Made by a program: the position numbers and the translations under genes. DNA of 64,000 bases from an uncultured Thermoprotei archaeon. Its GTDB lineage: Archaea; Thermoproteota; Thermoprotei; Thermofilales; B15-G2. Location: assembly GCA_965367815.1 (NCBI GenBank), contig CBDUKN010000007.1, positions 22,076 through 86,075 of the forward strand, read 5' to 3'. Position 1 is the stretch's first letter; the number at the start of each line of letters is the position of its first letter. The notes under the pieces are model-generated. The model did no database searches. It worked only from the letters and a program-made list of their open reading frames with translations, and was not told where the DNA came from. Below are positions 2,826 through 54,466 of the stretch, one piece after another.

Positions 2826-3130
2826 GAACTAAATATACTGTGATCAAAGCTTTAAGCTTAGGTGTCTGCATTAAAAGAACATTTGCTTGGCACTATTGTA
2901 GAAAATATAAATTTTATATAGAAGGTAGAAGAAGTGGCGAGTATTGAAAAGAAATTTTTTAATTATAGCAGAGTGTTGCGAAAGTCTGGTGAAAGACTAA
3001 GCTACTGAAGCATGCATTTAAGTAACTGTTGAAAACTGAGCGAAAATCATCTTTCGTCTCGAAGACCAAAAATATTTTATTACAATTGGCTTTAGAGTAT
3101 TCTGAAAGTAGTAGAAGGGAGGAGACTACT

Positions 3131-3661: not shown

Positions 3662-3671
3662 CTTCCTGTAT

Positions 3672-4396: not shown

Positions 4397-4430
4397 TCAT
4401 GTAAATAATAACATAAGCAGTATATTAGCG

Positions 4431-34516: not shown

Positions 34517-35830
34517 GTGTACAAGAAAATAGTATTCTTCATACTCACACTTATTTCCTCGTTTGTAATAATGTATAGCGTAGTATCGAAGTGTCCTCTA
34601 CTGCCCGGCATAGACGGTCCCTACTACTTAGTTCAGACAAATTATCTCTTAAAGTACTTTAAGCTAAAATACATGGATCCTCCTTTGGCTTTCTTTATTC
34701 TAGCTTTCTTCAGATTGTTTATAAGCGACCCCTTTGTAGCGCTTAAAGTAGGAATAACAGTAATTACGTCAAATATAGCAGCCACTATTTTCCTTTACTC
34801 AGATTACTTCACTAAAGACGAAATACAGGCTTTCTTAATTTCGCTTATATTTGTCTTAAACAGCACTACATTTAGACTGCTGCAAGACTTCTGGAAAAAC
34901 ATAACTGGCTTCATTTGGATAGTTCTGTCGCTGTATTTTACTGCAAGAGGGGTAAACGAGAACAACAGAAAGTACTGTATCTTAGCCTCACTATTCATAG
35001 TGCTGACCTATTTAACACATATACTTGACGCAGGAACCATTACCTTGATCTATCTATTTACACCATTTTTTCTTCTAATACACTCTACTAAAAGTGTTAA
35101 GAAAGTATGGGTTCAGGTAGCTACAGCAGCATTAATGCTTGCAGCAGCTTTCGCAGCGCCAATAATTGTCGGAGGAGATATAGCCAAAGGAGTAGCCTTT
35201 ATTGAAGACTTACTGGAGCTAGAGAAAGAGGTAGAAGAATTTCCGCCTATTATTGCTGTAAGGTGGTCGTTTACAGGACTTCTCTTCGGTGCAGCCTGCT
35301 TAATCTTTTCAATATACTATATTAAAAGAAAGCCTGTGTGCAGTATACTGGGAGCAATAGGTGTAGCTTTAATAGCGCTAAATTTACCTTTCATTGAAAG
35401 AGGCTGGCTATGGAGATTTCAGTTAATGAATGGACTTCTCATAACTTTAGCTCTTCCAGTAATTTTAGCGGAAATCGAAGACAAGACCGCTAAAATAGCT
35501 ATACTTCTTCTAATTCTAGGCTTTGTTGTATACGACTCTGCCTACTACTTCGACAGAGGACTCCGTATGAGCATATCTTTAGCTGAATACGCTGAAATAA
35601 AGCTTCTTGTGAAAAAGCTCCCTCCAGGCGCAACTCTAGTAGTACCTAATACTAAGCTAAGGTACTGGATTGAAACATTTTGCGAAAATGTAGTTAGACA
35701 GCCGACAGGAGCTGAGGGAAAGCTTATTCTAGTAATTGAGAAAAGAGTAGTGCACAAAAGACCTCCTTGGCCTGTGTTTTTCAGAGGAAAATTTATTGAA
35801 GCATACATTATATTGAAAAAGAGACCTTAA
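34517..35830 (+). CDS. Polytopic membrane protein (GT-C-glycosyltransferase-like topology; function uncertain)
   Basis: The 437-aa protein has about 11-13 hydrophobic segments and a soluble C-terminal ~90 aa. It is the first gene of a tightly spaced operon. Confidence 0.45.
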   Translation: MYKKIVFFILTLISSFVIMYSVVSKCPLLPGIDGPYYLVQTNYLLKYFKLKYMDPPLAFFILAFFRLFISDPFVALKVGITVITSNIAATIFLYSDYFTKDEIQAFLISLIFVLNSTTFRLLQDFWKNITGFIWIVLSLYFTARGVNENNRKYCILASLFIVLTYLTHILDAGTITLIYLFTPFFLLIHSTKSVKKVWVQVATAALMLAAAFAAPIIVGGDIAKGVAFIEDLLELEKEVEEFPPIIAVRWSFTGLLFGAACLIFSIYYIKRKPVCSILGAIGVALIALNLPFIERGWLWRFQLMNGLLITLALPVILAEIEDKTAKIAILLLILGFVVYDSAYYFDRGLRMSISLAEYAEIKLLVKKLPPGATLVVPNTKLRYWIETFCENVVRQPTGAEGKLILVIEKRVVHKRPPWPVFFRGKFIEAYIILKKRP

Positions 35831-35885
35831 GTTTCACAGGGTAGAAGTTTTTTATAATAGATAATATACAGTACCTTGAGGTGTT

Positions 35886-38800
35886 ATGCTTAAAGGGAAA
35901 TTATTAGCTTTCATACTAGGATTAACTCTAATATCAGCGGCTCTGCTAGCGCCTATTTCAGCTGTACCAATGTTTACCATAAGAGGATATGTTAAAACAT
36001 GGAAAGGAGAGCCTCACACCAATACTATAGTCGTGGCATTCGATATAGCAAACTACGAAGTAAGAGGAGTGACTAAAACAAATGCTAGCGGATACTTTGA
36101 AATTACAGTACCGAGAGGCTATAAGTACGTAGTATTTATTCTGCCGCTCAACGCTAATGGAACAGCTCTAAGCCATGTACCAGAAATAGCCGACTTACAT
36201 TCATTTGAAGACTTAGTTGAAGTCACTATAAACTTCAAGGCATACCCAGCAGCATTTGTTAAAGTCTACGGAACAATACACTATGTTGGGGGAGATTGGC
36301 TCGAAATATTTTCACTTAAAGTACTAGATACAAGCGGAACAAGGATATCTGAAGTACTAGACGCAGGTAAAGCAGTATACTCAAGAGAGTTCGTGGGTAA
36401 AGGTGAAGTAAAAGTATCTCTTGTCGACGAATATGGCACAGCGTCAAGTTTCCTCGTATACTATGAAGTAGGAGTAAGGAGAGGAAAACTGCCTGCAGGT
36501 CTAGCCGATAAAAGCATAGCTATAGTTCCTGCAGAAAAACCAGTTATAGTTGAGTTCACGACAAGCATAATAGATAACCGTAAGCCACCGTTCCTTAGAG
36601 AACCAATACACAGAGTAAAATTCACTATAGGAGATCCACTCAACCCGCTAACACTAAAACCCGGAGAAAAAGTATTATTTGATATCGAGAAAGAGTCCTT
36701 GAAGAGAATTATCCAGGAAGTTAGAAGAGACGTCGATATAGCTGAATCACTCATAGAAGAAATGGAGCGAATGGGCTTCTACCTAGCTCCAGAGAGAGCA
36801 GACTTAGCTAAAGCTATAGCGCTAATAGAAGAAGCAAAGCTCGCCTATGAGCAGAACCAGCCAGTAGAGCAGATAATAGAGAAGCTTGAGAGAGCATACG
36901 TTATAGCGACACAAGTAGTAGCTGGACGAGTATTTTTCCTCAAAACAGTTGCTTTAGAGGGAGCGCCTCTTCTCTCATACTTCATAGCACTCTTCGCAGC
37001 AGTAATGGCCTACTACTTCTTCGAAGACCCCAAGAAAAAACTATACTCGTTCATAGCGTTCTTCGCAGCCTTCATGATAATATTCGCGCTATCTTACCCA
37101 GGATTCCCACTACTATGGAACAACAGAAGAGACCTCTTCCTAATCTCAGTATCTACAGCCTTCTTCGGAGTACTCTTCTTACTATTCTACTTACCCATCA
37201 AAATAAAGGAAGCAGAGCTCCCAGGAACATTCAGAAGAGGAGCAATACTGGCAGTAACATTCTCACTTGCAAAGAGATTCTCTAGACTCAAGAAAACTAG
37301 AACAGGTATAGTAGTGTTCTCTCTAGCGGCTCTAATCTGGGCGTTTACAGTACTAGCATCTATTTCAACAGTATACGGCATATGGAGCGCTGAAGTACCT
37401 TCAGTAACCAAGGTAAACGCGCTAGTGGTAAAGCACTTAATAAATGAGACAACTATAAGTTCACTAGGCTATTTCTCTGACTACCAGTGGTTCGTCCAGC
37501 AGCTAGGCAACGATAGTGTATCAGTAGTAGTCTATAACGATCCGACAATTAAGCTAACTATACTCATTACTTCACCTGAAGGAAAATCTGTTGAAGTCAA
37601 AGCCTTCATGGGAGTCTCAGAGATAGAAGACAAAATTACAGGCATATCAAAAATAATAGTTGAAGGAGACTGGTCAAAAGTAGAGGAAAAGAACTCTGTC
37701 TTCTTACCTTCAACTCTAGCTGAGAAGCTTGGAGTGAAAGTAGGAGATGTAGTTAAAATAGAAGTATATAGGCCGGGAGTAGAAATACCTGTATCAGAAA
37801 AATACGTTGTCGCAGGAATATTTGATGAACTGTCTCTAGACAGAATAAAAGATATCGATGGAACACCGCTTAAACCACTAGTTCTAGTGAAAGGAGGCTT
37901 TGCTCCAGCAAACTCAACAGACATAATTATTGGCAACTGGGAGTACTTACTCAAAGAAGTTCTCCTTGAAGAGAAAGCACTATTCTCAACAGTATTTAAG
38001 ATATACAGAATAGCTGCAGTAGGGTCATCAGATGTACTGAAGAGCGTAGCCAGAAGATATATTGAAAGAAAAGGTGAAGGCTACTATGTTTACGTAAATA
38101 CTGAAGGCAAGTGCTACAAACTTTTCTTCGGACAGAAAGTAGAAAACATCTTAATGAGAAACGTTGACTTCATAATACCAATAGCAATAGTAATCTCGGT
38201 AGTACTTGTATCAATGTACAGTATAGTAGAGGAAAGAAGAAGAGAAATATTTATCTTCAACGCTATAGGCTTCAATCCAATGCACATAGCCTTCCTATTC
38301 TTAGCGGAGTCAATAGTCTACGGACTCATATCAGGAGGCCTAGGATACATAGCTGGAATAGTCACCTTCAGAGTAATGGCAACATACTTCTCGTCACTAA
38401 ACCTCCTAGTAAGAGAAAAGCTAGAGTGGTACTGGAGCATCATAGCAATATTTATCTCAATACTAGTAGCCATGATCGCTTCCTTCAAGCCAGCACTCAA
38501 AGCAGCCATGATGTACACTCCATCAAGAGTACGCAGAGTAAAGGCCACTGAGGCAGAAAAACTCAAACGCGAAGAAAAAATCCTAGTAACCTACGTAGGC
38601 AAGAGGTATCTACTATCAGCTAAAATCAAGGAAGATGAGGCCGTAATATTCTTCTCGTTTATATACTCAAGGCTCAAGGACATGGAGTCAGGATACACTG
38701 AGAGAGTAGAAGATCTGCAGGAATATGATGAAGAAGAGCTTCCCGACGGAACACTAGTAAAGAGATTCACCTTCAAGTGCGTGCTCTTAGTTGAAGGAGA

Positions 38801-38996
38801 GCGCGTAGTCATAGACAACGACTTGAGGTGCACAAAGAGTTCTAAAGAGAAGTTCTATAGAGTAGAGCTCTACGCGAAGCCTCATGGCGAAAAAGAAATC
38901 CCGCTGAGGTACCTTGATAGAGTAGCCTCAATGATCAACGATATACTCAAGTCATGGGAAGAAGAAAGAAAGAGGCTGCTGTCGTCGCGCCGATAA
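35886..38996 (+). CDS. Secreted-domain / FtsX-MacB-type permease fusion protein (P1)
   Basis: It has a signal peptide, a CarboxypepD_reg-like domain (RGYVKT..TNASGYFEITVPRG) and a 3-TM bundle. Next come MacB-type TM1, a periplasmic-domain motif 'LPSTLAEKLGVKVGDVVKIEV' and the FtsX core 'EERRREIFIFNAIGFNPMHIAFLFLAESIVYGLISGGLGY'. It ends in a ~170-aa cytoplasmic tail. SD GAGGTG lies upstream. Confidence 0.75.
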   Translation: MLKGKLLAFILGLTLISAALLAPISAVPMFTIRGYVKTWKGEPHTNTIVVAFDIANYEVRGVTKTNASGYFEITVPRGYKYVVFILPLNANGTALSHVPEIADLHSFEDLVEVTINFKAYPAAFVKVYGTIHYVGGDWLEIFSLKVLDTSGTRISEVLDAGKAVYSREFVGKGEVKVSLVDEYGTASSFLVYYEVGVRRGKLPAGLADKSIAIVPAEKPVIVEFTTSIIDNRKPPFLREPIHRVKFTIGDPLNPLTLKPGEKVLFDIEKESLKRIIQEVRRDVDIAESLIEEMERMGFYLAPERADLAKAIALIEEAKLAYEQNQPVEQIIEKLERAYVIATQVVAGRVFFLKTVALEGAPLLSYFIALFAAVMAYYFFEDPKKKLYSFIAFFAAFMIIFALSYPGFPLLWNNRRDLFLISVSTAFFGVLFLLFYLPIKIKEAELPGTFRRGAILAVTFSLAKRFSRLKKTRTGIVVFSLAALIWAFTVLASISTVYGIWSAEVPSVTKVNALVVKHLINETTISSLGYFSDYQWFVQQLGNDSVSVVVYNDPTIKLTILITSPEGKSVEVKAFMGVSEIEDKITGISKIIVEGDWSKVEEKNSVFLPSTLAEKLGVKVGDVVKIEVYRPGVEIPVSEKYVVAGIFDELSLDRIKDIDGTPLKPLVLVKGGFAPANSTDIIIGNWEYLLKEVLLEEKALFSTVFKIYRIAAVGSSDVLKSVARRYIERKGEGYYVYVNTEGKCYKLFFGQKVENILMRNVDFIIPIAIVISVVLVSMYSIVEERRREIFIFNAIGFNPMHIAFLFLAESIVYGLISGGLGYIAGIVTFRVMATYFSSLNLLVREKLEWYWSIIAIFISILVAMIASFKPALKAAMMYTPSRVRRVKATEAEKLKREEKILVTYVGKRYLLSAKIKEDEAVIFFSFIYSRLKDMESGYTERVEDLQEYDEEELPDGTLVKRFTFKCVLLVEGERVVIDNDLRCTKSSKEKFYRVELYAKPHGEKEIPLRYLDRVASMINDILKSWEEERKRLLSSRR

Positions 38997-38997
38997 A

Positions 38998-40584
38998 ATG
39001 TTAAGTAAATATTTGGACAAAGAATTTTTGTTAACTTTATTTATTCTAATTATTTTGCTTATAGAAATAATAGCATTATTTATACTACCTAGCTTTAAAG
39101 TAAAAAAGTTAACTAGAGAAGAATACTTAGCGAAAGCTATTGAAGCCTACGAGTGGATGATGCAGTTCCAGATAACTCCTCCCGGCACTCCATGGGGATG
39201 GCACCTGAACTGCAGAGACGCATGGGGAGGACTAGCAGGCTACTACACCAGACACTGCAAGTGGGCAGCAGTGTACGGTGCTGAAAGCTTCTATCAGCTC
39301 TACATAGCCTCACACGACGTAGGCTGGTTCTTGGAACTCGGAGTAGACCTATATAATATAACCGGCGAAGAAAAGTACCTTAAAGCTACTGAACTAGCAG
39401 CACAGTGGGCTCTCAGAATACAAGTAGGGTACAGTTCTTGGCTTAAAAAATTCGAAAAGCGCTACATTATGCCTCAAAAAAGTGAACGCAGTGTTAGCTG
39501 GAGATACGTTCCTGGTATAAAGTTTTCTAATGAGGTCATTGGAGCATACACTGAAGGAATGTTTGTTTTCAGCGGCGAACCACCATATCTTCATGATTGG
39601 AGTGAAGGAGTATGCTACGCTGAGCCAGCACTTTGGGTTGCGCCCGAGCATGTCATACCTATAGCTAAAGGTTTACTAAAACTATACTTAGCAACAAAGA
39701 ATAAAACATACTTAATGTCAGCTATGAGGGCACTCGACTTTATAGCTAGAATGCAGTCTCCTGAAGGCGGTATATACACGTGTTATCCTCCGAATGCCTA
39801 CGGAATTAGAATGAGTGATACAGCTAGTGCAGCTGAACTTTTCCTTTATGCCTACATAGTGGTAGGAAACAAAACTTATCTCGAAAGAGGACTTAAGGCA
39901 TGTGACTTCATGATAAGCAAGCAAGTAGCTTACGGCAGGTGGAGAGGAGTGCTGCCTCACTTGTCTACAGCTGGAGGTTCTTGGAGAAAACACAGTTATT
40001 TTACAGGCGACGCTGCTGAGGCTATTATAGCCTGGTTAAAAGCATATGAGCTTACGGGTGAATATAAGTATCTGGAGGCGGCTGTAAGAGCAGCTTACTT
40101 TCTTCTTAGAATGCAGGAAACAGACGCCAGTAAGCCTTGGGGTACTAAGATATATTCATGGGATAAGCGTGCAGTAGGAGGATTCTACTGGGCCTATGTG
40201 CCAGGCTACGGCATCTTGGAATACCAATTTGTTTCATCAACTACGTCAGCCGCCATAGCTTTACTCAAATTATACACTGTAGTCGAAGAACCTATTTTCT
40301 TAGAAAGCGTGAACTTGGCTTTAAAATGGCTTCTCGAGACAGAAATATATTCTCCTTCAAACACATACTTAGATCTTCCCGGCTTAACCGTAGTAAGCGA
40401 TCCTCACGGACTTTATAAAAGCGGATATGTCCCACTATACGGTAAGTATTACGATGAAATCCCCGGAACAATGACAGGAGACCCCGAGCAAGGCTTCTGT
40501 GTAGCAATGGCTGCCTCCGGTCCCTGCTACCTCTTCCTTGAAATATACAGATTATACCATAAAGTATATAATCAGCAGAAGTAG
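38998..40584 (+). CDS. Membrane-anchored extracellular alpha/alpha-toroid (prenyltransferase/terpene-cyclase-like repeat) protein
   Basis: It has an N-terminal TM anchor, then repeated 'RMQ/KQ..G.W/Y' units (RMQSPEGGIY, SKQVAYGRW, RMQETDASKPW). Its start is 1 nt after the upstream stop. Confidence 0.45.
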   Translation: MLSKYLDKEFLLTLFILIILLIEIIALFILPSFKVKKLTREEYLAKAIEAYEWMMQFQITPPGTPWGWHLNCRDAWGGLAGYYTRHCKWAAVYGAESFYQLYIASHDVGWFLELGVDLYNITGEEKYLKATELAAQWALRIQVGYSSWLKKFEKRYIMPQKSERSVSWRYVPGIKFSNEVIGAYTEGMFVFSGEPPYLHDWSEGVCYAEPALWVAPEHVIPIAKGLLKLYLATKNKTYLMSAMRALDFIARMQSPEGGIYTCYPPNAYGIRMSDTASAAELFLYAYIVVGNKTYLERGLKACDFMISKQVAYGRWRGVLPHLSTAGGSWRKHSYFTGDAAEAIIAWLKAYELTGEYKYLEAAVRAAYFLLRMQETDASKPWGTKIYSWDKRAVGGFYWAYVPGYGILEYQFVSSTTSAAIALLKLYTVVEEPIFLESVNLALKWLLETEIYSPSNTYLDLPGLTVVSDPHGLYKSGYVPLYGKYYDEIPGTMTGDPEQGFCVAMAASGPCYLFLEIYRLYHKVYNQQK

Positions 40585-40591
40585 GAGGTAG

Positions 40592-42445: not shown

Positions 42446-42765
42446 ATACTGCACACATTACCGTCCAAGAAAGCAATAATTTTAGTTCAATTAACTTTAA
42501 ATTTATCTTTCCTGTAGCCAATCAATCTTTAACACACTACTATAAAATTAGTACTAATTTCGGCAGCAATATTCCTATTTTTTGCTCATAACTACCTTTA
42601 CGTTCTTATAAAAAGACTTTATTAAAGCAGTCTTAAACTAAATGCGTTAATAACTAAACATATGGCTCCTAGCAACAATTTTCATAAAACCCTTACGACA
42701 CGTTATGACCCTGAGAAGAAATTTGACAAAGGTAAAAAATACTGACGGTTCATATATCTTTTTCG

Positions 42766-42781
42766 GAAAGCCTTAAATAAT
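42766..42781 (+). promoter_or_regulatory. BRE/TATA promoter for 42831..44858
   Basis: 'gaaagccttaaataat' combines purine-rich BRE-like bases with a TATA-like box ~55 nt upstream of the ATG. Confidence 0.35.
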
Positions 42782-42830
42782 TTTGTTTTTCTAGTTAAAA
42801 CAGCATTTGATACATATTGAGGGATAGAAT

Positions 42831-44858
42831 ATGGTGGAGGAGACGAAAGTAAAAGAAGTAGAGGCTCTAAAAGTACTCAAATCACCGCGCCTCATAATCC
42901 TCTGGATTATAATTCTACTAGTATTCATCCCCTATCAAGCATTCAGACTCTATGGATGTTACGGCAACGGAACATCGTTCATGAGCCTAGTGCTCTTACT
43001 AACAGCTATAATCGGCTTATTTAGCAAGAAGTTTAAGCTATCACCTCAAGAAGCAACAATAGCCTTTGCCATAGCGACAGTAGCAGCTGATATCTCAATC
43101 TATACAGCTTTCTACGATAATCCACTATCAGGCATACCCTTCATTAACCTATATGGCGGACCAAACCTCGATAAAGTAAAGCAGTGGATACCTTCATGGA
43201 TGTTTATACCTACAGAAGTACTAGAGCCTGCCAGAAATGGTGGAGCAATGCTCCCACTAGGGCCGCTCTTACCAGTACTAGCTTTCTTAACAATATTCTT
43301 AATAGCACTCAAGTTGCTACAGCTAGCCACAGCAGGCATTATTGCAAGACAGTTTGTAGAAATAGAGCGCCTTCCATTCCCAGCCTTCATGCCAAGCCTC
43401 TACGTAATCAAATACTATTCCGAAGAAGTAGGAAAGAAGCCTAGACTACTATCATGGAAAGGCAACACTCCGTTCTGGCTGGGCTTCATCATAGGATTTC
43501 TAATAGATGCTATAGCTATTATGGAAGTATTTAGCGAAGCTGTCACAGGAAAAACCTACATACAGCTTCCTGCAAGCACAGGATTCATAGGACAGTTCGT
43601 AGTTGATCTAAGGTTCCTAGAACCGTACTTGCCGGGCGCAATGCTGTACTGGTATCCAGGACTAGACTTCGGTTTCTTCCCAGTCGCTCTCTTCTTGCCA
43701 TTAGATGTAATGGCTACGGCAATTCTATGGTTCTTCCTATGGTATATCTTCTATCCAGCAACAGTTAATATCCTTGGAATATATCCGACAAAAGTTACCG
43801 CAGGACAGCTAGGAGGAGGTGCTGTAGGAGCATGGCCATTTACATGGGTTGGTCAGATAGCAGTCCCATTTGCATTAGGCCTCTATCCACTAATATTTAG
43901 CTGGAGGTACTTCAGAGACTTCTTCAGAAAAGCTTTTAAGAGAACAGACCTCAATCCATCGCTCCCAGAAACTCTGCCAGTCTACACGGGTATTGTAGCT
44001 TTCATAATATTGCTAGCTCTGCTAGCGACTATAGGCATGCCAATAGTGCTAGCGTTTCTCTGGCTAATAGTTCTGACAATCTGTTGGACAGGTATGGCTA
44101 GAGTAGCAGGCGAATACTTCACTCAGCCACTGGCCTGGGCGTGGGGAGACCTCTACAGAGGATTCATGGGCTTCTCTCAGACAGTCATGGGCTGGCCTAA
44201 CCCCTATCCATCTAAAGAAGCATGGGGCACTATGATGGGCATGAGGCTGACTTACAATACTGTAGAAAGAGAGGTAGACAGCACATGGGGCTTCTTAGGC
44301 TGGTACAGGGTAGCGAGAGACACTAACACAAGCTGGAAAGCAGTCTATATAGCCCAGCTCGTAGCGGTAATTATTGGGGTAATTCTTGCCTGGCCAGCTA
44401 TCTACGGTCTAGCCTACTACAGAGGTCTTGAGGTAGGCTGGAACGGATACTTTACAGCTACATCCATCAGATACGCTGCTAGAAGATTTGTGGACTACGG
44501 TCTAGCAGGAACAGTAAATGCTATTAGTCCATGGAACATGCTAAAGATCGGATGGCTCTTTGGAGGCATCGTAATGGTCTTTGCTATAATGTGGCTTAGA
44601 CTCAGATTCCCATGGTTCTTCCTCAACCCAGTAGGTATGCTATGGCAACACCCATGGTGGCTTGGTGCAACTATGCTAGCTTTCGTTATAAAGTACATCG
44701 TTATCAAGGTGGGCGGTGCACAGGCTAATGAGAAATACTTAATACCCTTCGCTACCGGCTGGGCTTTCGGATCAGCTATAGGTGGACTAGTGACATACTG
44801 GCCCGAAAACATTTATAGAGCGTTCTTCAACAGACTCTTCCCGTACTTCTGGTGGTAA
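42831..44858 (+). CDS. Polytopic membrane protein, OPT/YSL-superfamily-like (Q1)
   Basis: The 675-aa protein has about 14-16 TM segments. 'EIERLPFPAF' aligns with 'EIEKLPFPIG' of the paralogue 49730..51664 and recalls the OPT/YSL 'KLTYPSGTATA' loop. Confidence 0.5.
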   Translation: MVEETKVKEVEALKVLKSPRLIILWIIILLVFIPYQAFRLYGCYGNGTSFMSLVLLLTAIIGLFSKKFKLSPQEATIAFAIATVAADISIYTAFYDNPLSGIPFINLYGGPNLDKVKQWIPSWMFIPTEVLEPARNGGAMLPLGPLLPVLAFLTIFLIALKLLQLATAGIIARQFVEIERLPFPAFMPSLYVIKYYSEEVGKKPRLLSWKGNTPFWLGFIIGFLIDAIAIMEVFSEAVTGKTYIQLPASTGFIGQFVVDLRFLEPYLPGAMLYWYPGLDFGFFPVALFLPLDVMATAILWFFLWYIFYPATVNILGIYPTKVTAGQLGGGAVGAWPFTWVGQIAVPFALGLYPLIFSWRYFRDFFRKAFKRTDLNPSLPETLPVYTGIVAFIILLALLATIGMPIVLAFLWLIVLTICWTGMARVAGEYFTQPLAWAWGDLYRGFMGFSQTVMGWPNPYPSKEAWGTMMGMRLTYNTVEREVDSTWGFLGWYRVARDTNTSWKAVYIAQLVAVIIGVILAWPAIYGLAYYRGLEVGWNGYFTATSIRYAARRFVDYGLAGTVNAISPWNMLKIGWLFGGIVMVFAIMWLRLRFPWFFLNPVGMLWQHPWWLGATMLAFVIKYIVIKVGGAQANEKYLIPFATGWAFGSAIGGLVTYWPENIYRAFFNRLFPYFWW

Positions 44859-44877
44859 ACTAGAAATAGTTTAACAA

Positions 44878-44894
44878 TTTTTTATTTTATTTTT
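44878..44894 (+). terminator. T-tract terminator
   Basis: 'tttttttattttatttt' begins 20 nt after the stop at 44858. Archaeal termination occurs at oligo-T tracts. Confidence 0.45.
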
Positions 44895-45096
44895 AATGTG
44901 TTTTAAATAGTTAGAGTCTTCTTATGCTGTATATGCCTTAATTGAGGCGTAGGAAGTATCCTTTACTACAAGTTCTCGTTATGGTTATGTCTAGTACTAG
45001 GTAAACCGGGAGTCATAATATGGAAGCTTAGCTGACACAATTTTAACAATTATTGGGTTATCTCTATTGAAAAATCTTTTATAAGAACATAAATTA

Positions 45097-45109
45097 GGTT
45101 TATATAGCC
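45097..45109 (+). promoter_or_regulatory. TATA box for 45129..51664
   Basis: 'ggtttatatagcc' is centred ~26 nt upstream of ATG 45129 (leaderless geometry). Confidence 0.4.
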
Positions 45110-45128
45110 AAAGGTTTACTGTTAATTG

Positions 45129-48100
45129 ATGGTGATAAATTCAAAGAAAGCTTTTACACTAATATTCATTATAGTTCTGAGTGTAGTGATTGCCACGGTA
45201 CCTGAAGCAACTGTTTCTCGCAGAGAAACAATTAACTGGGAGGATCTTGAAGCATTCTTAAAGAACTTCAATTACTCCAAGGTTCTCAAACATATCGAAT
45301 ATTTTGGCTCGCTTGATAGTCGCTTGACAGGGTATCCCGGTGCCTGGGAAGCTCTACGCTATATATATTCAGAGCTGGAGCTCTATGGGTACGACTTAGT
45401 CTATTTCCAGAATTTCACCACAGTTGTTCCAGTAGTGCGAGAAGCTTACATTGAAGTTAAGAGCGGCGAGACTGTCAGCAAGTTTAAAGTATACCCTGTT
45501 TGGCCTAATCTTGTTCAAACATCTCCTACTGGACCCGAAGGTATCTCGGGGAAGTTGCTCTACTTAGGTAAAGGGGACTTAGAGAGCATCAAGGGAATAG
45601 ACATAAAAGATGCTATTGTTCTCCTGGATTATAACAGCGGAGACAATTGGGTGAAGTTAGCCGAGCTAGGAGCAAGAGCTGTAATTTTCATAGAGCCTTT
45701 ATCAACCAACAGATTCGAGTCTTTCAATAAATTTGTCTACGTAAATCTTTATTTCCCTAGAGTCTATGTTGACAGAAAGACTGGTATCGAACTAAAAAAA
45801 CTGTGTGAAAAAGATGCCGCTACAGCTAGGCTTATTCTAGATTACTCGATGGAAGAGGTTGTTTCAGCGAATGTAGTTGCTTTCCTGAAAGGAAAAGGCA
45901 GCACTAATGATTCTCTTGTTTTAGCAGCATATATTGACGATTGGTCTCCTGTACCCGAGCTCGCTAGCCACTATGATAGCGCCTGCGGTGCAGCAGTCTT
46001 ACTCGAAGTAGCACGCTTACTAGCTAAAAGTAAGCCAGAACTCAACGTCATTGTAGTATTCTTTACGGGTCACTGGGAAGGTTTATGCGGACCTAGAGCT
46101 TTCGTAGAAGAGGTACTCGAAGTTTTTGCTGACCGCACATTGCAGAACCATCCAATATGGAACCAAAGTGTTCCTAAAACATTTCTTTCATTGGATTTAT
46201 CTACTGGTAGCAGTAGTGTTGCCCTACTCCACTCAGGCGGATTTTATCACGTAGCAGGTCCCAGTATTTTTGAAGAATGCGTAGACATGTTCAGGGGAAT
46301 GGATTTCCTTCTAAGAGAGTATGGTAGGAGTAACAGGCTAGCTGACTTAGTCAAAAAATACTCAGGCAGGGCTCCTGAAATATATTACCAGCTTATAGAT
46401 CAATCTGGAGGCGCTTACGTGGAGGCTGGTGAGCTAGAATACTTTACTCCTGTGCCCTACAAGTACATCGCTGATGTAGAGCCATGGCTTCAAGCGGGAC
46501 TACCAGGCTATACGCTCTTTACTGCTTTCGACTACAGGTTTACATGGTTCACTCCTCTTAAAGAACGAGTACACTTTAACCCGGATAACCTTAAGCCTCA
46601 AGCATACTATGTTGCAGCACTATCTTACATTTACTCCAACGTCGTAACAAGTGATTACCCACCGAGGAGAGTATGGGGCCCGACTCGCTACTATTTCCCA
46701 GGACCCTTCGCCCCATTTGTTCCGGGCTTCACTAAGATGAGAGGTCAAGTCGTAGTATATTTGCCTATTTCGCCTAGACAGTATGAGCCGCTAATGAATG
46801 AAACTATAGTAGCTATAGTGGATTCAGAGGATCAATACAATATTTTCAACTATATTTTCTTAAAAACAAAGCCTAATGGAACTTTTGTTGTCCATGGTCT
46901 AGCCATAGATAGAGGAGGGGGAGCAAGAACTTATATGGCTAGGCTCTACGTAATTGACTATAAGAACAAGGGAAGAATTCTCTATACAAATGATTACGGC
47001 AAATATGGTGCTGAAGCAATATACACTACGAGAACGTTCAGTGTGAGAGAAGGAGTCTATGGATGGCCGCAGCCTTTGCGTTTCGTCGTATTCAAGTGTG
47101 CCAGCATAACTATGTTTAGTGTAACTTTTCCTCAAGGAATGCTTGACTTATACAACTACATGAGTATATACAAGACTCTTCAAGCCCGAGATGTTTCAGT
47201 AATAGTTAGAGAATTTACATCTCACTCAGAGGTATATCACTATGGTTATGAAGTAGACCCTATGTCTAGGATACTAGTTGTCTATGTCAAGCCTGAAGAG
47301 AGAATAGAAATAGAAGTACACGTTAGGTCTCAGGAAGGGCCAATCTACTTAACAATTCTACTTTTAAATGCTTCTGAAAAATACCCGGAGGGTGCTGGTT
47401 ACTATCTTAATGAGCCGGGAGAATCTCTGGTTTTATTAAAGTCTACTTTGCACTACGTCGAGAACTTCTACTGGCTAAGTAGATATAGAATAGACTTGGC
47501 TGCGAGGTTCGGTGTCTTTGACGCGGAGTCTCAGAGAAGTTTGAGGATGCTTGAAGAGTGGCGTAATTTAACTAAAAAGTATTTAGAGGAAAAAGATTAT
47601 AGTAAAGCCTACTATGCTTCGCTAATCGCTTGGGCTTGGGCACAAAAGCTCTATTACTCGTCGAGAGGGCTTATTCAAGGCTCATCTACAACTACTGTAG
47701 TCTACTTCGTTATGTTGATCCCATTTGCTTTCGTGCTAGAGAGACTTTTATTTGAGTTTTACGAGGGCAGAAAAAGACTCTTAACAATAGCGTGTATCTT
47801 TGCAATATTTATTGTCTTGATGTGGCTTAACCATCCAGGTTTCCATTTAGTAGCGAGTATGCCTACACTGTTGCTAGGCTTCGTTATACTAACTATTTCG
47901 GTAGTAATAGGTTTCCTACTCTACACAGATTTCCAAGGCGTAATGTGGAGAGTAAGGAAAAAGACTCTTGGAGTACACTTCGTAGAAGTGAGTAGATGGG
48001 ATGTCATGGTTTCGTCGCTTTACTATGGTGTAGTAAATATGAAGAGGCACAAGGTTACTTCGCTTCTTACTCTGACAGCAATAGTCATCATAACAATGTC

Positions 48101-49727
48101 GCTAATATCACTTACATCAATTACGACGCATACTGTTCTAAAAACATTGAGTATTACTGCTGAGCCTAGTTATACAGGGCTTTTAGCTAGGTATGTCTCT
48201 TATGATACCTTGCCGGAATCGTTTGTGGAGTGCCTAAAGGTGTTAAGTGAAGAAGAAGTAGCTAGACGTGCCTGGCTTTATGGGCCTATTGAAGGATCGA
48301 CTCTATGGGGAGAAATACCTGTAGAGTATGAGGGTAAGAAAGAAACTGTAAGAGCTATAGTAGGCTTAGATGAAGTAGACGGTAAGGTCTTAGGCATAGA
48401 AGCCGCTACTATTTATAGAAGATGGAGTGAGCTTTTCCGCGAAATATCGCCCGACGTAATATCTTGTATAATAAACCGTAAGCTCGCAGAATTCCTTGGC
48501 ATAAAGTCTGTGCCTGCGAAAGTAAAAATATGGGGCATTGACTTTATAGTAGTCGATATATTTGATCCAGCTGCACTCGGTGGAGTAAGAGATATTGATA
48601 ATGAGCCTATAGCTCCTTTCAATATATGGTCTACTGAAGCAGGGGCATCTGGCATCGTTGTTACAGAGAGGCTTCAGTGGGATACTATTATAATTATTCC
48701 CTACAGTGTCTTAGAAAAGTTCCCTGGCTCTATAAGAGCGAGCACAGCTGTTGTAGGCGAAGACTACACGAAACTAGATAAGTTTGCCAGAATACTCGCG
48801 GAAATGACCTATAACATGTATCTCTTTGTCTCTGACGGAAAGAAAGTGAAAGGATATGTTTCGTTAGTAGGTCTCGCTGCTAGAGGATGGTCATTCTTAC
48901 TACCGGCTATAGTTATAGCTTCGCTTATAATGTTCAATATGATGATTTCTCTAGTACAGCAAAGAACAAATGAAGTTAAAACTCTTTCAGCTCTAGGTCT
49001 TGCTCCACTACATGTTGTTGGCCTCTTCTTCTCTGAAGCTATAGCCTATGCGCTCATAGGAGGAGTAATAGGATATACTACCGGTATATTTGTACTCAAG
49101 GCTTTGACACCACTAATGGGCCCCGGCTTCTATCCCAATTACACTTCAGGTGCAGTAGTGTTAGCGATAGCACTTTCATTTGTCACTGTAATAGTACCCT
49201 CAATTATTCCTGCCTTCAGAATGGGTGCTCTCGTAACACCATCGCTTGAAAGAAAATGGAAGATTACTACTAAACCTAGAGGAGATATATGGGAAATTCC
49301 TACGCCGTTTAGAGCAACTAAGGTAGAAGCTCCCGGCGTGCTTCTTTATGTTAAAGAGTTTCTCGATGCTCATAGAACAGAAAGAGCCCATAGATGGTTT
49401 GCTTCACTTGAAGAAGCTAAAATAACCTCATTTGAAATGGAGGGTAAAAAAGGCTATGCGCTTAAAACTAGAGTAATGCTCTATCCATGGGAGGCTGGAC
49501 TAAAACAGGAAGTTGAAATAGCTGCGTTACCAGAAGACGGTATTTCTCGATTCACTGTAGCGCTGCGCCTCGAGTCAGGGCCAAGAGAAGTCTGGATACG
49601 TTCCAACAAGGCGTTCCTAGATATCCTTAGGAAGCAGTTCTTATTATGGAGAAGTATTGTTCCTTCTGAGAGAAGAGAATACGTTAAGAAGGCTTTAGAT
49701 CTTGTGGGCTTGAAGGAGGGTGAGTAG
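45129..49727 (+). CDS. PA/M28-like ectodomain fused to an FtsX-MacB-type permease (P3)
   Basis: It has a signal anchor and a PA domain (GKLLYLGKGD..AELGARAVIFIEP). The M28-like core has altered ligands (AAYIDDW, HYDSACG, TGHWEG). Next come a TM bundle, 'NMKRHKVTSLLTLTAIV' (TM1) and the FtsX core 'QQRTNEVKTLSALGLAPLHVVGLFFSEAIAYALIGGVIGY'. It ends in a ~200-aa tail. I prefer ATG 45129 over the listed TTG 45126. Confidence 0.75.
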   Translation: MVINSKKAFTLIFIIVLSVVIATVPEATVSRRETINWEDLEAFLKNFNYSKVLKHIEYFGSLDSRLTGYPGAWEALRYIYSELELYGYDLVYFQNFTTVVPVVREAYIEVKSGETVSKFKVYPVWPNLVQTSPTGPEGISGKLLYLGKGDLESIKGIDIKDAIVLLDYNSGDNWVKLAELGARAVIFIEPLSTNRFESFNKFVYVNLYFPRVYVDRKTGIELKKLCEKDAATARLILDYSMEEVVSANVVAFLKGKGSTNDSLVLAAYIDDWSPVPELASHYDSACGAAVLLEVARLLAKSKPELNVIVVFFTGHWEGLCGPRAFVEEVLEVFADRTLQNHPIWNQSVPKTFLSLDLSTGSSSVALLHSGGFYHVAGPSIFEECVDMFRGMDFLLREYGRSNRLADLVKKYSGRAPEIYYQLIDQSGGAYVEAGELEYFTPVPYKYIADVEPWLQAGLPGYTLFTAFDYRFTWFTPLKERVHFNPDNLKPQAYYVAALSYIYSNVVTSDYPPRRVWGPTRYYFPGPFAPFVPGFTKMRGQVVVYLPISPRQYEPLMNETIVAIVDSEDQYNIFNYIFLKTKPNGTFVVHGLAIDRGGGARTYMARLYVIDYKNKGRILYTNDYGKYGAEAIYTTRTFSVREGVYGWPQPLRFVVFKCASITMFSVTFPQGMLDLYNYMSIYKTLQARDVSVIVREFTSHSEVYHYGYEVDPMSRILVVYVKPEERIEIEVHVRSQEGPIYLTILLLNASEKYPEGAGYYLNEPGESLVLLKSTLHYVENFYWLSRYRIDLAARFGVFDAESQRSLRMLEEWRNLTKKYLEEKDYSKAYYASLIAWAWAQKLYYSSRGLIQGSSTTTVVYFVMLIPFAFVLERLLFEFYEGRKRLLTIACIFAIFIVLMWLNHPGFHLVASMPTLLLGFVILTISVVIGFLLYTDFQGVMWRVRKKTLGVHFVEVSRWDVMVSSLYYGVVNMKRHKVTSLLTLTAIVIITMSLISLTSITTHTVLKTLSITAEPSYTGLLARYVSYDTLPESFVECLKVLSEEEVARRAWLYGPIEGSTLWGEIPVEYEGKKETVRAIVGLDEVDGKVLGIEAATIYRRWSELFREISPDVISCIINRKLAEFLGIKSVPAKVKIWGIDFIVVDIFDPAALGGVRDIDNEPIAPFNIWSTEAGASGIVVTERLQWDTIIIIPYSVLEKFPGSIRASTAVVGEDYTKLDKFARILAEMTYNMYLFVSDGKKVKGYVSLVGLAARGWSFLLPAIVIASLIMFNMMISLVQQRTNEVKTLSALGLAPLHVVGLFFSEAIAYALIGGVIGYTTGIFVLKALTPLMGPGFYPNYTSGAVVLAIALSFVTVIVPSIIPAFRMGALVTPSLERKWKITTKPRGDIWEIPTPFRATKVEAPGVLLYVKEFLDAHRTERAHRWFASLEEAKITSFEMEGKKGYALKTRVMLYPWEAGLKQEVEIAALPEDGISRFTVALRLESGPREVWIRSNKAFLDILRKQFLLWRSIVPSERREYVKKALDLVGLKEGE

Positions 49728-49729
49728 TT

Positions 49730-51664
49730 ATGGGGAGGTTTAGGTTATTCAATGAAGAAGAAGGATTAACTTGGAGGTCGTTTTTAGCAATAGTGTTTTC
49801 AGCGGTAGTAATACTTCCTATACAAATTTACATGACTCTAGCTACTCCAATATCAGTAGCTTGGCCCGCTGTAATTCTATTGCTCTTCACTGAGCTTGCC
49901 TATTTCTTCCACTCGCCTCTATCCAGACAGGAGGGCTTCATAATATATTTCGTCTCATCAGTAGCTATAGGAGGATCGGTACTCGTAGAGGGAATGATAC
50001 CTTTCCTTAACTTCCCCTACCGCGTATACATGGTTCAAAGCCCCTACTTCAAGGCACTAGGCTTCGATAAAGAGGTGCCCTGGTGGTTTGTTCCGCCTAT
50101 ATCTTCAGAAGCTATACTGAAGAGAACTCTGCTTCACCCAGACTGGCTATTCTACATAGGACTGCTTATCTTAGGCTTCATCATATATCTCGGCACAATA
50201 CTGCCTATGACCTTCATATTAGCTCAGCTCTACATAGAAATAGAGAAACTGCCATTCCCTATAGGAAGAGTACAAGCCGAGACAATAATCAGCTTGACTG
50301 AAAGAGACCCTGAGAGATTCGATAAATTCATACTGTCAGCAGTAATAGGAGTAATATATTCACTCATCCTCTACGGCTTCCCAATAATAACGCTAACATT
50401 CTTCGGCAAAGCATTTTCTGTTACAGGGTCTATGATATGGTCGTTCCTCGACTTGACTCAGGCACTACAAGTAATCATACCGGGAGCAATCTTCGGCGTA
50501 TCGCTAGACCTCCTCAACGTAGCTTCAGCATGGGTCATTCCCTCTTACCTAGTGATTACAGCAACTATAGCATCTATACTAGCCTATGTTGTCGGAAACG
50601 CTATTGCGCTAAAACTTCCGCTAGATATATTCAAGTGGTGGCAACAAGACTGGTTCCCTGGAGCAGGACTAGTCTGGCTCTACCAGCGCTCGTACTTTGA
50701 CTTATGGCTTAGTGCTTACATAGGTGTATCGATAGCTGCCGGTATAATGCCGTTTATCCTCGAGTACAAGAACTATGCCAGAGCTTTCTCTAATCTAAAA
50801 TCTCTCCCCGAGAGCGTGAAGAAAGCAGGGTACATATCGCTGACTCCTCTTCTCACAGTATACTTCCTTTCCGTAGCCGCCTCAATAGCGCTATTCAAGT
50901 ATCTTGTGCCTAGATTCCCCATAATACTGCTTCTGCCTTTCGTTGCCTGGGGCTTCATATGGCCTTTCATCAGCGCCTGGTCTATAGGTATGACAGGATT
51001 TGCTCCAGCCCAGCCCCCGATGCTCAGAGAGGCAACTATTCTCTTCAGCGGATACAAGGATCTAGATGTATGGTTCGCTGGATGGGTTGCTCAGCCAGGA
51101 AATGCTCCAGGAGTAATAGTGAATGCATTCCAAGTAGGCTACTGGTGTGGAGTAACTCCGAAAACATACCTCAAGGCGGCTTTCATGGCAATGCCTCTGC
51201 TCTTCATATTCTCGCTAATATACGTCGACATGTTCTGGCGCATGGCTCCAATGCCCTCAGCCTTCTACCCATGGATCGAGGTAACGTGGCCTATTTCTGT
51301 GCTAAACTGGGTTATCTGGCCTACATTCGTGAGAAAAGGCTTCCTGCCTACAATAAGCTCAGAGTTTATAATAGGGTTCTTCTTAGTATCAGCGATTCTC
51401 GCAGTGGTCTTAAAGATACTTAAGCTACCTCTAGCAGTGCTAATAGGTGTTCTCTGGGGAATTACTTCTATGCCTCATCCGCTAGTAGGAGCAACAATAG
51501 GAGTAATTGTGGGCAAGATACTCGAAAAGAAGCTTGGTAAGGAAAAGTGGGACCGCGATAAAGTAGTCATAGTAGCTGGCTTAACTCTAGGAAACGCTGT
51601 AGCAATAGCTTTCGCCGCCTCGTTGCTACTAATATCGAGGTCGCTATGGGCTCTACCATACTAA
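49730..51664 (+). CDS. Polytopic membrane protein, OPT/YSL-superfamily-like (Q2), paralogue of 42831..44858
   Basis: The 644-aa protein carries 'EIEKLPFPIGRVQAETIISL'. Its start is 3 nt after the P3 stop, with GGAGGG upstream. Confidence 0.5.
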   Translation: MGRFRLFNEEEGLTWRSFLAIVFSAVVILPIQIYMTLATPISVAWPAVILLLFTELAYFFHSPLSRQEGFIIYFVSSVAIGGSVLVEGMIPFLNFPYRVYMVQSPYFKALGFDKEVPWWFVPPISSEAILKRTLLHPDWLFYIGLLILGFIIYLGTILPMTFILAQLYIEIEKLPFPIGRVQAETIISLTERDPERFDKFILSAVIGVIYSLILYGFPIITLTFFGKAFSVTGSMIWSFLDLTQALQVIIPGAIFGVSLDLLNVASAWVIPSYLVITATIASILAYVVGNAIALKLPLDIFKWWQQDWFPGAGLVWLYQRSYFDLWLSAYIGVSIAAGIMPFILEYKNYARAFSNLKSLPESVKKAGYISLTPLLTVYFLSVAASIALFKYLVPRFPIILLLPFVAWGFIWPFISAWSIGMTGFAPAQPPMLREATILFSGYKDLDVWFAGWVAQPGNAPGVIVNAFQVGYWCGVTPKTYLKAAFMAMPLLFIFSLIYVDMFWRMAPMPSAFYPWIEVTWPISVLNWVIWPTFVRKGFLPTISSEFIIGFFLVSAILAVVLKILKLPLAVLIGVLWGITSMPHPLVGATIGVIVGKILEKKLGKEKWDRDKVVIVAGLTLGNAVAIAFAASLLLISRSLWALPY

Positions 51665-53029: not shown

Positions 53030-54466
53030 GTGACTCGAGTGATCTCGAAAACTATCGTAGAGCAGAATCCCTGGTGGAGAGTAAAAGATTTCGAGAGATT
53101 TGATTATGATTTAGAAAAATACCAAAAAATGATAGTACATTTCAGTAGAAAAATACCGCCACTCGCCAAAGGGAGAACATATTTTATTAAAGGTCCTAGG
53201 AGGTCAGGAAAGACTATTTGGCTGAAATTATATATTAAGCATTTAATAGAAAATGGAGAGGATCCATTAAGCATATTATATTTATCATGCGATAGAATAC
53301 CTATAGTAAACTATGTTCAGTTAATGAATATTATTAGAGAATACTTAAACATATATAAAAGAGAATCAAATTTTATTTTAATAGATGAAATTACTAGAGT
53401 AAATAAATGGAGCTATGCGCTGAAGGGACTAAAAGACTCCGGAGTACTGGAGAACTGCATAACAGTAGTCACGGGGTCAATACCCTTACTACTGACTAGA
53501 GGAGCAGAATTAATGCCTGGAAGAGGTGTTGAGGGAGGAGAATACTACTTAACGCCAGTGTCGTTTAGAAAATATATTGAAGCACTAGCTAACGAGAAAA
53601 TAAGAAGAATTCTAAAAGAGAAATCTTTTTCATTAGATGAAAGTATAGAAAAAATAGCTAAGAAAATTTCAGAAACATTGCCCTATATTACAGAAATAGA
53701 TGAAATCTTCTACAAGTATCTTCAAACAGGCGGTTTCCCTGAGGTAGTCGATGCTTTTCTCAGAAAAGAGAAGCCTGTAGAAGAAGCTCTTGAAATACTA
53801 CTAAACTATATTTTAGGAGATATAGCTAAAGAGAATAGAGATCCAGATATAGCTAAAGCAGTATTAATAGAAATATCAAAAAACCTATCAAGCATAGTAA
53901 CTTATGCTACATTAGCCAAAAAAATAGGAATATCGCTAGATACTGTTAAAGATTATATAAAAATACTAGAAGAAATGCTAGTAGTAATTCCTCTCGGGAA
54001 ATTCATTTTTTCAAGTAAAACAAGCACTCTAAAAGGAGGAATAAAAGCTTACTTTACAGACATAGGCTTCTACTACGCTATAAAAACATTTAGCGAAGGA
54101 AAATTATACAGTCAAGTAGTAAATGAAACATTAACAGTAGAGAAAACTCCGATCATAGTAGAAAACATAGTAGTATCACATATAGTTCAGCACGGAAGAA
54201 TACCTAAGCTAAGAGAACCAAATACTTTCATAGGCTATATAAAAAATAAAAAAGAAACAGACATACTGTATAAGAGACAAGACGGAACATTAGTAGAAAT
54301 CGAAGTAAAGTATAGGTATAAAGTCAAACTGCCTCCTGTTAAAAGAGCGAAAGAAGTAATAATTATTTCAAGAGACTCTTTTAGCTATGACAAAAATAAA
54401 AAAGTGCTTATAGTTCCTGTTTCAGTATTTCTCGCATTACTTAAAGATTGTGAAAAAAGTCTATAG
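53030..54466 (+). CDS. AAA-type ATPase with a DUF4143-like C-terminal domain (COG1373-like)
   Basis: Walker A is 'GPRRSGKT' and Walker B is 'ILIDEI', with the typical ~480-aa architecture. Confidence 0.7.
   Translation: MTRVISKTIVEQNPWWRVKDFERFDYDLEKYQKMIVHFSRKIPPLAKGRTYFIKGPRRSGKTIWLKLYIKHLIENGEDPLSILYLSCDRIPIVNYVQLMNIIREYLNIYKRESNFILIDEITRVNKWSYALKGLKDSGVLENCITVVTGSIPLLLTRGAELMPGRGVEGGEYYLTPVSFRKYIEALANEKIRRILKEKSFSLDESIEKIAKKISETLPYITEIDEIFYKYLQTGGFPEVVDAFLRKEKPVEEALEILLNYILGDIAKENRDPDIAKAVLIEISKNLSSIVTYATLAKKIGISLDTVKDYIKILEEMLVVIPLGKFIFSSKTSTLKGGIKAYFTDIGFYYAIKTFSEGKLYSQVVNETLTVEKTPIIVENIVVSHIVQHGRIPKLREPNTFIGYIKNKKETDILYKRQDGTLVEIEVKYRYKVKLPPVKRAKEVIIISRDSFSYDKNKKVLIVPVSVFLALLKDCEKSL

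Follow-up and report, generated by a model that had tools for sequence, protein, structure and literature searches.

Within a stretch of 64,000 nucleotides from the metagenome-assembled genome (MAG) of an uncultured Thermoprotei archaeon, referred to here as the window (G+C content about 40%), seven open reading frames (ORFs) on the plus strand form a cluster of about 17 kb at positions 34517-51664, in the order G1-P1-T-P2-Q1-P3-Q2. The conserved unit of this region is not the 17-kb cluster; it is a trio of genes, Qa-P3-Qb, in which a giant fusion protein (P3), joining a PA/M28-like ectodomain to an FtsX-type permease module, is flanked by two paralogous polytopic proteins, Q1 of the Qa type and Q2 of the Qb type. 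The 17-kb cluster consists of this conserved trio together with lineage-specific additions on the same P scaffold. The core appears to be a three-subunit membrane module, so far met only in Thermoproteota-type archaea. Its parts each come from known superfamilies; what is new is their combination, in which an ATPase-less FtsX fusion with a remodelled M28 domain is associated with a pair of OPT-fold paralogues, and which is conserved across several named Thermoproteota lineages. We tentatively favour, while holding it to be somewhat short of probable, the explanation that Qa and Qb form a proton-driven OPT-fold pair which imports a polymer-derived oligomer and in which P3 acts as a receptor or accessory subunit, its FtsX module and C-terminal domain serving as membrane scaffold and cytoplasmic clamp, not as an ATP-driven motor.

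Recurrence of the Qa-P3-Qb trio

In the window, Q1 occupies positions 42831-44858 (+, 675 aa), P3 positions 45126/45129-49727 (+, 1533/1532 aa, the start in the database gene call being the ATG at 45129) and Q2 positions 49730-51664 (+, 644 aa). Used as queries in word-indexed searches of proteins, Q1, P2 and a profile of Q1 brought up three to seven close relatives, and a scan of genome contigs returned two loci, giving synteny for close relatives only. A metagenome scan with Q motifs taken from a five-sequence alignment yielded 80 loci, which together span about 1.0 Mb and in which the identity of Q ranges over 23-87%; in these loci ORFs were called and then searched with pieces of the window proteins. 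A P3-like gene of about 1,500 aa, with M28-like domain, FtsX module and C-terminal domain, was found in 60 of the 80 Q loci, and it directly adjoins a Q gene in 56. P3 and at least two Q genes lie within three genes of each other in 49 loci. The 20 loci that have no P3-like gene are mostly contigs shorter than 6.3 kb, or carry Q at the contig end. The Q genes are of two types with preferred positions relative to P3: Q2-like genes stand directly downstream of it in 33 of 42 cases, and Q1-like genes upstream in 26 of 31.

Relatives at 83-87% identity keep the full order of the window, G1-P1-T-P2-Q1-P3-Q2. The order in a relative at 63% identity (locus L002) is P3'-Q2'-Q1-P3''-Q2''-T-P2, and two relatives at 40% identity have Q1-P3-Q2. 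An earlier note on this DNA had taken the 17 kb as a single conserved system; only the trio proves to be widespread, since T-P2 extends to the 63% relative and G1-P1 to those at 83%. The comparison of neighbourhoods that the same note proposed has therefore a divided outcome, as the P-Q adjacency is conserved, but the gene for the alpha/alpha-toroid protein, T, is present in relatives of the window lineage only.

A chance juxtaposition in one MAG, or an assembly artefact, is an explanation that the MAG origin of the window might invite, and so might the gaps of 385 and 267 nt that split the cluster. It is nevertheless scarcely credible, as the same gene order occurs in independent assemblies (GCA_003649445.1, B15_G2, and ERZ and JGI contigs) and the trio is found at 23-63% identity in 49-60 loci. 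For the trio itself, chance is ruled out by this recurrence in dozens of loci, which also settles the concern, raised at the outset, that the adjacency might be unique to one genome.

The locus L002 deserves separate mention. Between its positions 3301 and 21964 lie two P3 genes, mutually 29% identical, each trailed by its own Q2-type gene, with a single Q1-type gene between; because it holds two P3-Q2 pairs, the module can duplicate within one locus. Other P paralogues with different ectodomains stand beside some trios (L014, L060-L066, L069, L083). In L070, a 1130-aa heparinase II/III or alginate-lyase-like protein (2550-5942) is inserted between Qa and P3, and in L061, L064 and L065 this place is held by a protein of about 540 aa, of which the L061 copy was scanned and had no Pfam match. 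A family of proteins of about 230 aa occurs near the trio in nine loci (L034, 2967-3713, and eight others), the L034 representative again having no Pfam match. All named relatives are Thermoproteota MAGs.

Architecture of P3 and of the Q proteins

P3 starts with a signal anchor, which is followed by the PA/M28-like ectodomain (45303-46625, +, residues about 60-500) and a second ectodomain; then come three transmembrane (TM) helices and the FtsX module, and a conserved cytoplasmic domain forms the C-terminus. The first ectodomain matches Peptidase_M28 (PF04389) with 6e-11, and its best match in the PDB is the PA+M28 aminopeptidase 2ek8 (1.5e-9). In comparison with 2ek8, H-x-D has become Y-I-D, the bridging Asp is retained and the catalytic and metal-binding E-E pair is replaced by H-W. 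This pair is absent from all 58 non-identical P3 homologues, in which the motif always reads G-H-[WY]-[EQ]; the first His of M28 is present in most of them and is Tyr in the window lineage, and the two Asp ligands are mostly retained. Read against the canonical M28 motifs, the fourth Asp is presumably kept, with the last His replaced by Ser-Glu in the family and by Val in the window. The window also offers an internal control, a stand-alone PA+M28 peptidase (59715-61388, +, 557 aa) whose canonical HHD, AADN and AEE motifs are intact.

To judge by these residues, the M28-like domain of P3 is not an M28 peptidase, and selection seems to maintain its pocket in a new form, suggestive of the binding of a ligand or of a single metal. 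A retained ligand or metal site is a better description than a dead domain, because the M28 site has been remodelled identically throughout the family. The domain had been called catalytically degenerate in the earlier note, and the loss of the E-E pair in 58 of 58 homologues agrees with this; the same remodelling throughout is, however, not random decay. Inactive M28-fold receptors are known in the transferrin receptor and nicastrin, which are eukaryotic single-pass proteins. The likeness to P3 is one of the M28 fold, that is, a membrane-tethered PA/M28-like ectodomain minus its catalytic residues which serves as a receptor for a ligand or substrate, whereas in P3 the metal site is partly retained, in a new form that is conserved.

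By hydropathy, P1, P2 and P3 share a common plan, which comprises an optional N-terminal ectodomain, three TM helices, FtsX TM1, an outside loop of 245-270 aa, FtsX TM2-4 and, on the cytoplasmic side, a tail of 125-170 aa. An end-to-end alignment of their cores gives 21% identity, and each protein has a single FtsX module (PF02687: P1 3e-11, P2 2e-6, P3 6e-11, all over the 25.5-bit cut-off). Against the PDB, a P profile has its best matches among the solved permeases YtrF (2e-12), LolF, MacB, LolC and FtsX. On these matches, the P core is a bona fide FtsX/MacB-type module. With the type VII ATP-binding cassette (ABC) systems (MacB, LolCDE, FtsEX, YtrEF, HrtBA, BceAB) it shares the four-TM FtsX module and the coupling-helix motif; between TM1 and TM2 it has an extracytoplasmic loop in the place of their large domain, with sequence similarity to that domain in P1 only. 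The theme of P ectodomains and partners recalls FtsEX with EnvC, PcsB or RipC. The P proteins differ from these systems in their three extra N-terminal TM helices and cytoplasmic C-terminal domain, in having no fused or linked nucleotide-binding domain (NBD) in the window or in the 80 loci, and in an ectodomain that is fused, not recruited. Their hosts, moreover, are archaea without murein, and the parallel with FtsEX-EnvC that had been drawn for this cluster stays an analogy only.

The FtsX TM2-TM4 segment of P3, with the coupling-helix motif, is encoded at 48891-49220 (+, Pfam residues 1256-1365). The motif reads Q-R-x-N-E..S-A-L-G-L-A-P in the window and E-R-x-R-E-I..S-A-L-G-L-S-P in the family, its residues R1280, G1291 and P1294 are invariant in the 58 homologues, and the segment aligns with the YtrF, LolF, MacB, LolC and FtsX structures. 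It is followed by the cytoplasmic C-terminal domain (49221-49724, +, about 165 aa), the most conserved part of P3, with a mean column conservation of 0.50. Nine of its residues are invariant in the same homologues (P1372, R1376, P1384, W1389, P1394, W1490, R1502, L1506 and W1508), and W1378 is kept in 57 of the 58. A profile of this domain found no match in the PDB or in Pfam. A C-terminal domain common to P1, P2 and P3 was also considered and dropped, as the profile comparison of the P1 and P2 tails with that of P3 gave a match over some 46 residues and a V-T-P-S motif next to the membrane only (E 0.003, probability 10%).

The Q proteins belong to a family that Pfam has filed as domains named by number. 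Q1 matches DUF6785 (E 2e-12, 47.2 bits against a cut-off of 25) and DUF6784 (E 1e-6, 29.0 bits against a cut-off of 26.4), and NCBI names the relatives "DUF6785 family protein". Q2, which has no Pfam match, was recognised as a distant paralogue of Q1 by profile-profile comparison (hhalign probability 96.8%, E 2.6e-10, 575 columns); BLASTP between the two detects a shared E-x-E-[RK]-L-P-F-P motif only. The family is small, because an exhaustive HMMER search among 1.84 billion proteins gave 801 representative clusters, and the named members that were sampled are all archaeal MAGs, from Thermoprotei, Thermofilaceae, Desulfurococcaceae, Sulfolobales and Bathyarchaeota. In 47 sequences at 20-63% identity to Q1, the membrane charges E74, E179, D292, R590 and K621 are nearly invariant. 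A literature search on DUF6785, DUF6784 and PF20581 found no relevant paper.

An AlphaFold2 model of Q1, built from an eight-row alignment, reached moderate confidence (pLDDT 63, pTM 0.70). When this model was searched with Foldseek, barley YS1 (HvYS1, 7wsr/7wst) was the sole significant match in the PDB, with E 1e-8 and probability 1.0; the TM-scores were 0.61/0.67 over the full length (about 670 columns), and the next match had E 0.12. YS1 is a member of the OPT superfamily, a proton-driven symporter and a dimer (PMC9691689). The Q proteins resemble this superfamily in their size (about 650-700 aa) and in the conserved acidic and basic residues in the membrane, and the pairing of the Q genes has its counterpart in the HvYS1 dimer. 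They differ from it in being two divergent paralogues around a giant accessory gene, an arrangement that we know of in no OPT member, and in a genomic context that hints at carbohydrate as against peptide or metal-chelate cargo.

Energy supply, cargo and rival explanations

In the explanation tentatively favoured here, Q1 and Q2 would pair, probably as a heterodimer of OPT-fold secondary transporters by analogy with the YS1 dimer, and would work with a single giant accessory subunit, P3. The PA/M28-like domain of P3 would serve to capture the substrate or to keep it at the surface of the membrane; the three TM helices and FtsX-type four-TM module of P3 would dock onto the Q pair, and the C-terminal domain would occupy the place of the usual ABC ATPase. 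The proton gradient, acting via the Q subunits, would supply the energy in place of ATP. As cargo, an organic oligomer is envisaged, for which genomic context favours a glycan-derived compound and fold analogies a peptide. In this scheme we infer that the subunits form a complex, that transport is inward and coupled to protons, that P3 acts as a receptor, and what the cargo is.

The evidence on an ATPase is as follows. No NBD is fused to or adjoins any of the seven cluster genes, and in a six-frame motif scan of the window ABC-type Walker A motifs were found only in two type I exporter genes, the first of which also holds the single match to the ABC signature motif. Motif scan and profile searches agree on this with the earlier note, which had assigned the only NBDs of the window to that pair. 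The pair itself (26993-30510, +) encodes type I ABC exporter half-transporters (ABC_membrane + ABC_tran) with a 1-nt overlap, self-contained and unrelated to the FtsX proteins. A dedicated ATPase gene beside orthologous clusters was looked for as well, and none was found in the approximately 60 loci that carry P3; likewise, no MacB/FtsE-type NBD gene is linked in the roughly 1 Mb around the 80 loci, a search that covered the loci themselves. To our knowledge, MacB/FtsE-type NBD and permease genes are almost always adjacent in prokaryotes. An ABC NBD of any kind lies within about 10 kb in six of the 80 loci, four of which are annotated, or readable from gene order, as importers of the solute-binding protein (SBP) type or of the ABC-3 type, and ABC_tran does not recur as a family among the neighbours. 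The two NBDs that stand beside a Q gene are in complete unrelated importers, made up of solute-binding protein+BPD_transp_1+ABC_tran and of ABC-3+ABC_tran. The NBDs near Q in L018, L024 and L049 were tried as the dedicated ATPase and rejected, since L018 and L049 hold complete SBP-type or ABC-3 operons and L024 has the gene order of L018.

The ATPase-less FtsX arrangement stands insofar as no linked ATPase was found, but it has a precedent in the bacterial ADOP family. The Acidobacterial duplicated orphan permeases (ADOP, TIGR03434) are FtsX permeases habitually without an adjacent ABC ATPase gene, and in this the P proteins resemble them. The matches of P1, P2 and P3 to the ADOP model are weak (3e-8 to 1e-4, 20-32 bits against a cut-off of 622). 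ADOP proteins are bacterial, have two FtsX modules per chain, in contrast to the one of the P proteins, and come without an M28 domain or OPT-like partners.

Orphan permeases of this kind exist in bacteria, an unlinked ATPase is conceivable, and a rival explanation treats the P proteins as genuine membrane subunits of type VII ABC systems (MacB/FtsX/LolCE-type), driven by an ATPase encoded elsewhere in the genome. ATP-powered mechanotransmission would then switch their ectodomains, or the partners T and G1, as FtsEX does with EnvC, PcsB and RipC, in the remodelling of the S-layer or of surface glycans, and the Q proteins would be separate transporters taking up the released products. The FtsX TM2-4 and coupling-helix motif, strongly conserved and alignable with those of YtrF, LolF, MacB, LolC and FtsX, would be expected of such subunits, P1 retains a LolCE/MacB-like extracytoplasmic loop, and the pairing of T with P2 looks like that of a permease and a hydrolase-like partner. 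This explanation is a serious contender, yet we consider it unlikely, given the megabase of surrounding DNA without a linked gene for a MacB/FtsE-type NBD. It also has to accommodate the tail of 125-170 aa on every P protein, which in P3 is the most conserved part and sits at the NBD docking place, and it leaves the strict Qa-P3-Qb order and the tight coupling unexplained by independent functions.

A bolder proposal would make the OPT-fold proton cycle itself the motor of FtsX-type mechanotransmission in place of the ABC ATPase. In such an energy-coupled envelope machine of a new kind, the membrane potential would do mechanical work on the large extracellular domain, by which a substrate derived from a polymer is captured, unfolded or passed on, and the C-terminal domain would be a cytoplasmic clamp in place of the nucleotide-binding dimer. 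We regard this proposal as quite improbable.

To approach the nature of the cargo, the non-redundant genes up to three positions from P or Q genes were considered; 132 of them were scanned together and the representatives of recurrent clusters singly, and the counts were pooled. The families found were URO-D-like proteins (8), xylose-isomerase-like TIM barrels (6), GFO/IDH/MocA oxidoreductases (6), GH66 (4), NamZ (4), Glucodextranase C-terminal modules (3) and GHL10/DUF4015 (3), and GH57, GalT, fucose isomerase and the heparinase II/III-like lyase that lies between Q and P3 in L070 were also among the neighbours. No recurrent peptidase family was present among the scanned P/Q neighbours. In the window, T resembles glycan-active enzymes, and a gene for a xylose-isomerase-like TIM barrel stands at 54461-55270. 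This context points to a carbohydrate-derived more than a peptide cargo, with a modest signal. Peptide capture and S-layer remodelling, the roles first suggested for the cluster, are not what the neighbours of the relatives indicate, as these point to carbohydrate use.

The same neighbours bear on a further explanation, in which the module is an envelope export or assembly machine, with Q flipping or exporting a lipid-linked or soluble glycan or peptide precursor that the P ectodomains, T and G1 process or attach outside. G1 is GT-C-like and T resembles glycan-active enzymes, every product is a membrane or extracytoplasmic protein, and a DegT aminotransferase and a sulfatase are encoded in the window, all of which would suit such a machine. 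We nonetheless hold it to be improbable, as G1 and T are lineage-specific and missing from most trio loci and the recurrent neighbours are catabolic (GH66, GH57, NamZ, polysaccharide-lyase-like, GFO/IDH/MocA, sugar isomerases, GalT). In addition, the OPT-fold proteins characterised so far are importers (PMC9691689).

Several points weigh against the proposed proton-driven import by Qa, Qb and P3. The P-Q complex is proposed from gene adjacency, which alone proves no complex. In all solved relatives the coupling-helix motif is where the ATPase binds, and its invariance in P3 fits an unlinked ATPase as well as it fits docking by the C-terminal domain. The Q proteins are filed by Pfam under DUF6785/DUF6784, neither Q1 nor Q2 matches Pfam OPT (PF03169) with the limit relaxed to E 10, and YS1 did not come up among PDB sequences when these were searched with a Q profile of 47 sequences. 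The OPT-like label given in the earlier note is accordingly upheld at the level of the predicted fold, by a single model of moderate confidence (pLDDT 63), but not by sequence. We know of no OPT member that carries sugars, and the carbohydrate-type neighbours, about 30-35 of 146, are a modest share, which has no background rate for these genomes to be read against.

Lineage-specific genes and surroundings of the trio

The remaining four genes of the cluster extend the trio in the window's own lineage, to which G1-P1 and T-P2 are confined among the 80 loci. It may be that two extra P paralogues joined the trio in this lineage, each with its own enzyme-like partner, extracellular or in the membrane, T with P2 and G1 with P1. 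G1 (34517-35830, +, 437 aa) is a polytopic membrane protein with about ten hydrophobic segments and a match to PTPS_related (PF10131, E 1e-7, 31.1 bits against a cut-off of 26.4), which we take to be a polytopic family in the GT-C clan. It is a lineage-specific accessory gene; among the relatives, only L007 and L010, at 83% identity, have it ahead of P1. T (38998-40584, +, 528 aa) has an N-terminal TM anchor and an alpha/alpha-toroid resembling glycan-active enzymes, with matches to C5-epim_C (1e-9), Pec_lyase (PL10, 6e-7), GH76 (4e-5) and GH127 (2e-4); among PDB sequences the default threshold left it a single match, to a GH76 mannanase (8e-4). The T-P2 pair is kept in L002/L003 and L007/L010.

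P1 (35886-38996, +, 1036 aa) consists of a signal peptide, a 315-aa ectodomain, three TM helices, FtsX TM1, the outside loop, TM2-4 and a 165-aa cytoplasmic tail. The match of its ectodomain to CarboxypepD_reg is weak (7e-4 to 4e-3, under the cut-off). Its outside loop matches lolCE (1e-10) and, weakly and under the cut-off, MacB_PCD (0.004), and the outside loops of P2 and P3 are present with no profile match to LolCE/MacB_PCD. P2 (40592-42445, +, 617 aa) is the minimal P protein, with three to four N-terminal TM helices, the FtsX module with a loop of about 250 aa, a 125-aa cytoplasmic tail and a match to FtsX_Gpos (1.5e-6). It had been described as being without an ectodomain, which holds for the N-terminus, but not for the extracytoplasmic loop of about 250 aa between FtsX TM1 and TM2. 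The AlphaFold2 model of P2 was poor (five-row alignment, pLDDT 43), and the statements made here on the P proteins rest on sequence.

The layout of the seven genes was likewise reexamined. They lie at the coordinates given by the earlier note, all seven products are multi-TM or signal-anchored in hydropathy scans, and the seven co-oriented genes for membrane or extracytoplasmic products are in this way confirmed; the earlier domain calls also hold in Pfam and NCBIfam profile searches. The junctions, given before as 1-8 nt with GGAGG boxes, need correction. No more than three of the six are tight, with 1, 7 and 2 nt; the remaining ones measure 55, 385 and about 267 nt. A clear GGAGG box is found only ahead of P2 and of Q2, which starts 2 nt after P3. 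The AT-rich spacer of 385 nt (42446-42830), with TATA-like boxes, divides the G1-P1-T-P2 block from the trio, and a second long AT-rich spacer, with several TATA-like boxes, lies inside the cluster at 44859-45125 (267 nt). The genes flanking the cluster are unrelated to it (ATP-grasp, ARMT1-like phosphatase, DUF763 and AAA_14), and a tblastn search of Q1 against plasmids gave no match that would indicate a plasmid origin.

Other genes of the window may be noted in their own right. A second alpha/alpha-toroid-like protein (56993-58111, +, SQHop_cyclase_C E 3e-7) is encoded 5 kb downstream of the cluster. Upstream lie a DegT/DnrJ/EryC1 sugar aminotransferase (18833-20143) and a sulfatase (20571-21992), which are unlinked to the cluster in relatives and may bear on surface glycan chemistry. 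Two Ras-family small GTPases are encoded at 3029-3661 (+) and 11113-11625 (+), with E 1e-43 and 4e-46 to Pfam Ras and further matches to Roc and Arf; one of these genes is directly upstream of a HypF carbamoyltransferase gene (11665-13971). Ras-family small GTPases are uncommon outside eukaryotes and Asgard or some TACK archaea.

Searches of the literature for FtsX with M28 and OPT, for FtsX in archaea and for ADOP found nothing relevant, and the remark of the earlier note that it knew of no described archaeal system of such composition agrees with the absence of any published description in these searches. FtsX/MacB-type modules are understood only as ATP-driven mechanotransmitters, and OPT-fold proteins only as stand-alone proton symporters. 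The archaeal trio unites parts of both kinds without a linked ATPase, and adds to them a remodelled receptor-like domain and a C-terminal domain with no known relative. If the proposed explanation is true, this would be a new way of building a nutrient-uptake or envelope machine, and it would provide the first functional handle on the Pfam families DUF6785/DUF6784. Relatives of the trio occur in MAGs of Thermofilaceae, Desulfurococcaceae and Sulfolobales, which are families with cultivated species. For the uncultured heterotrophic Thermoproteota of hot sediments and springs, the trio is a candidate route by which the breakdown products of polymers may be taken up.

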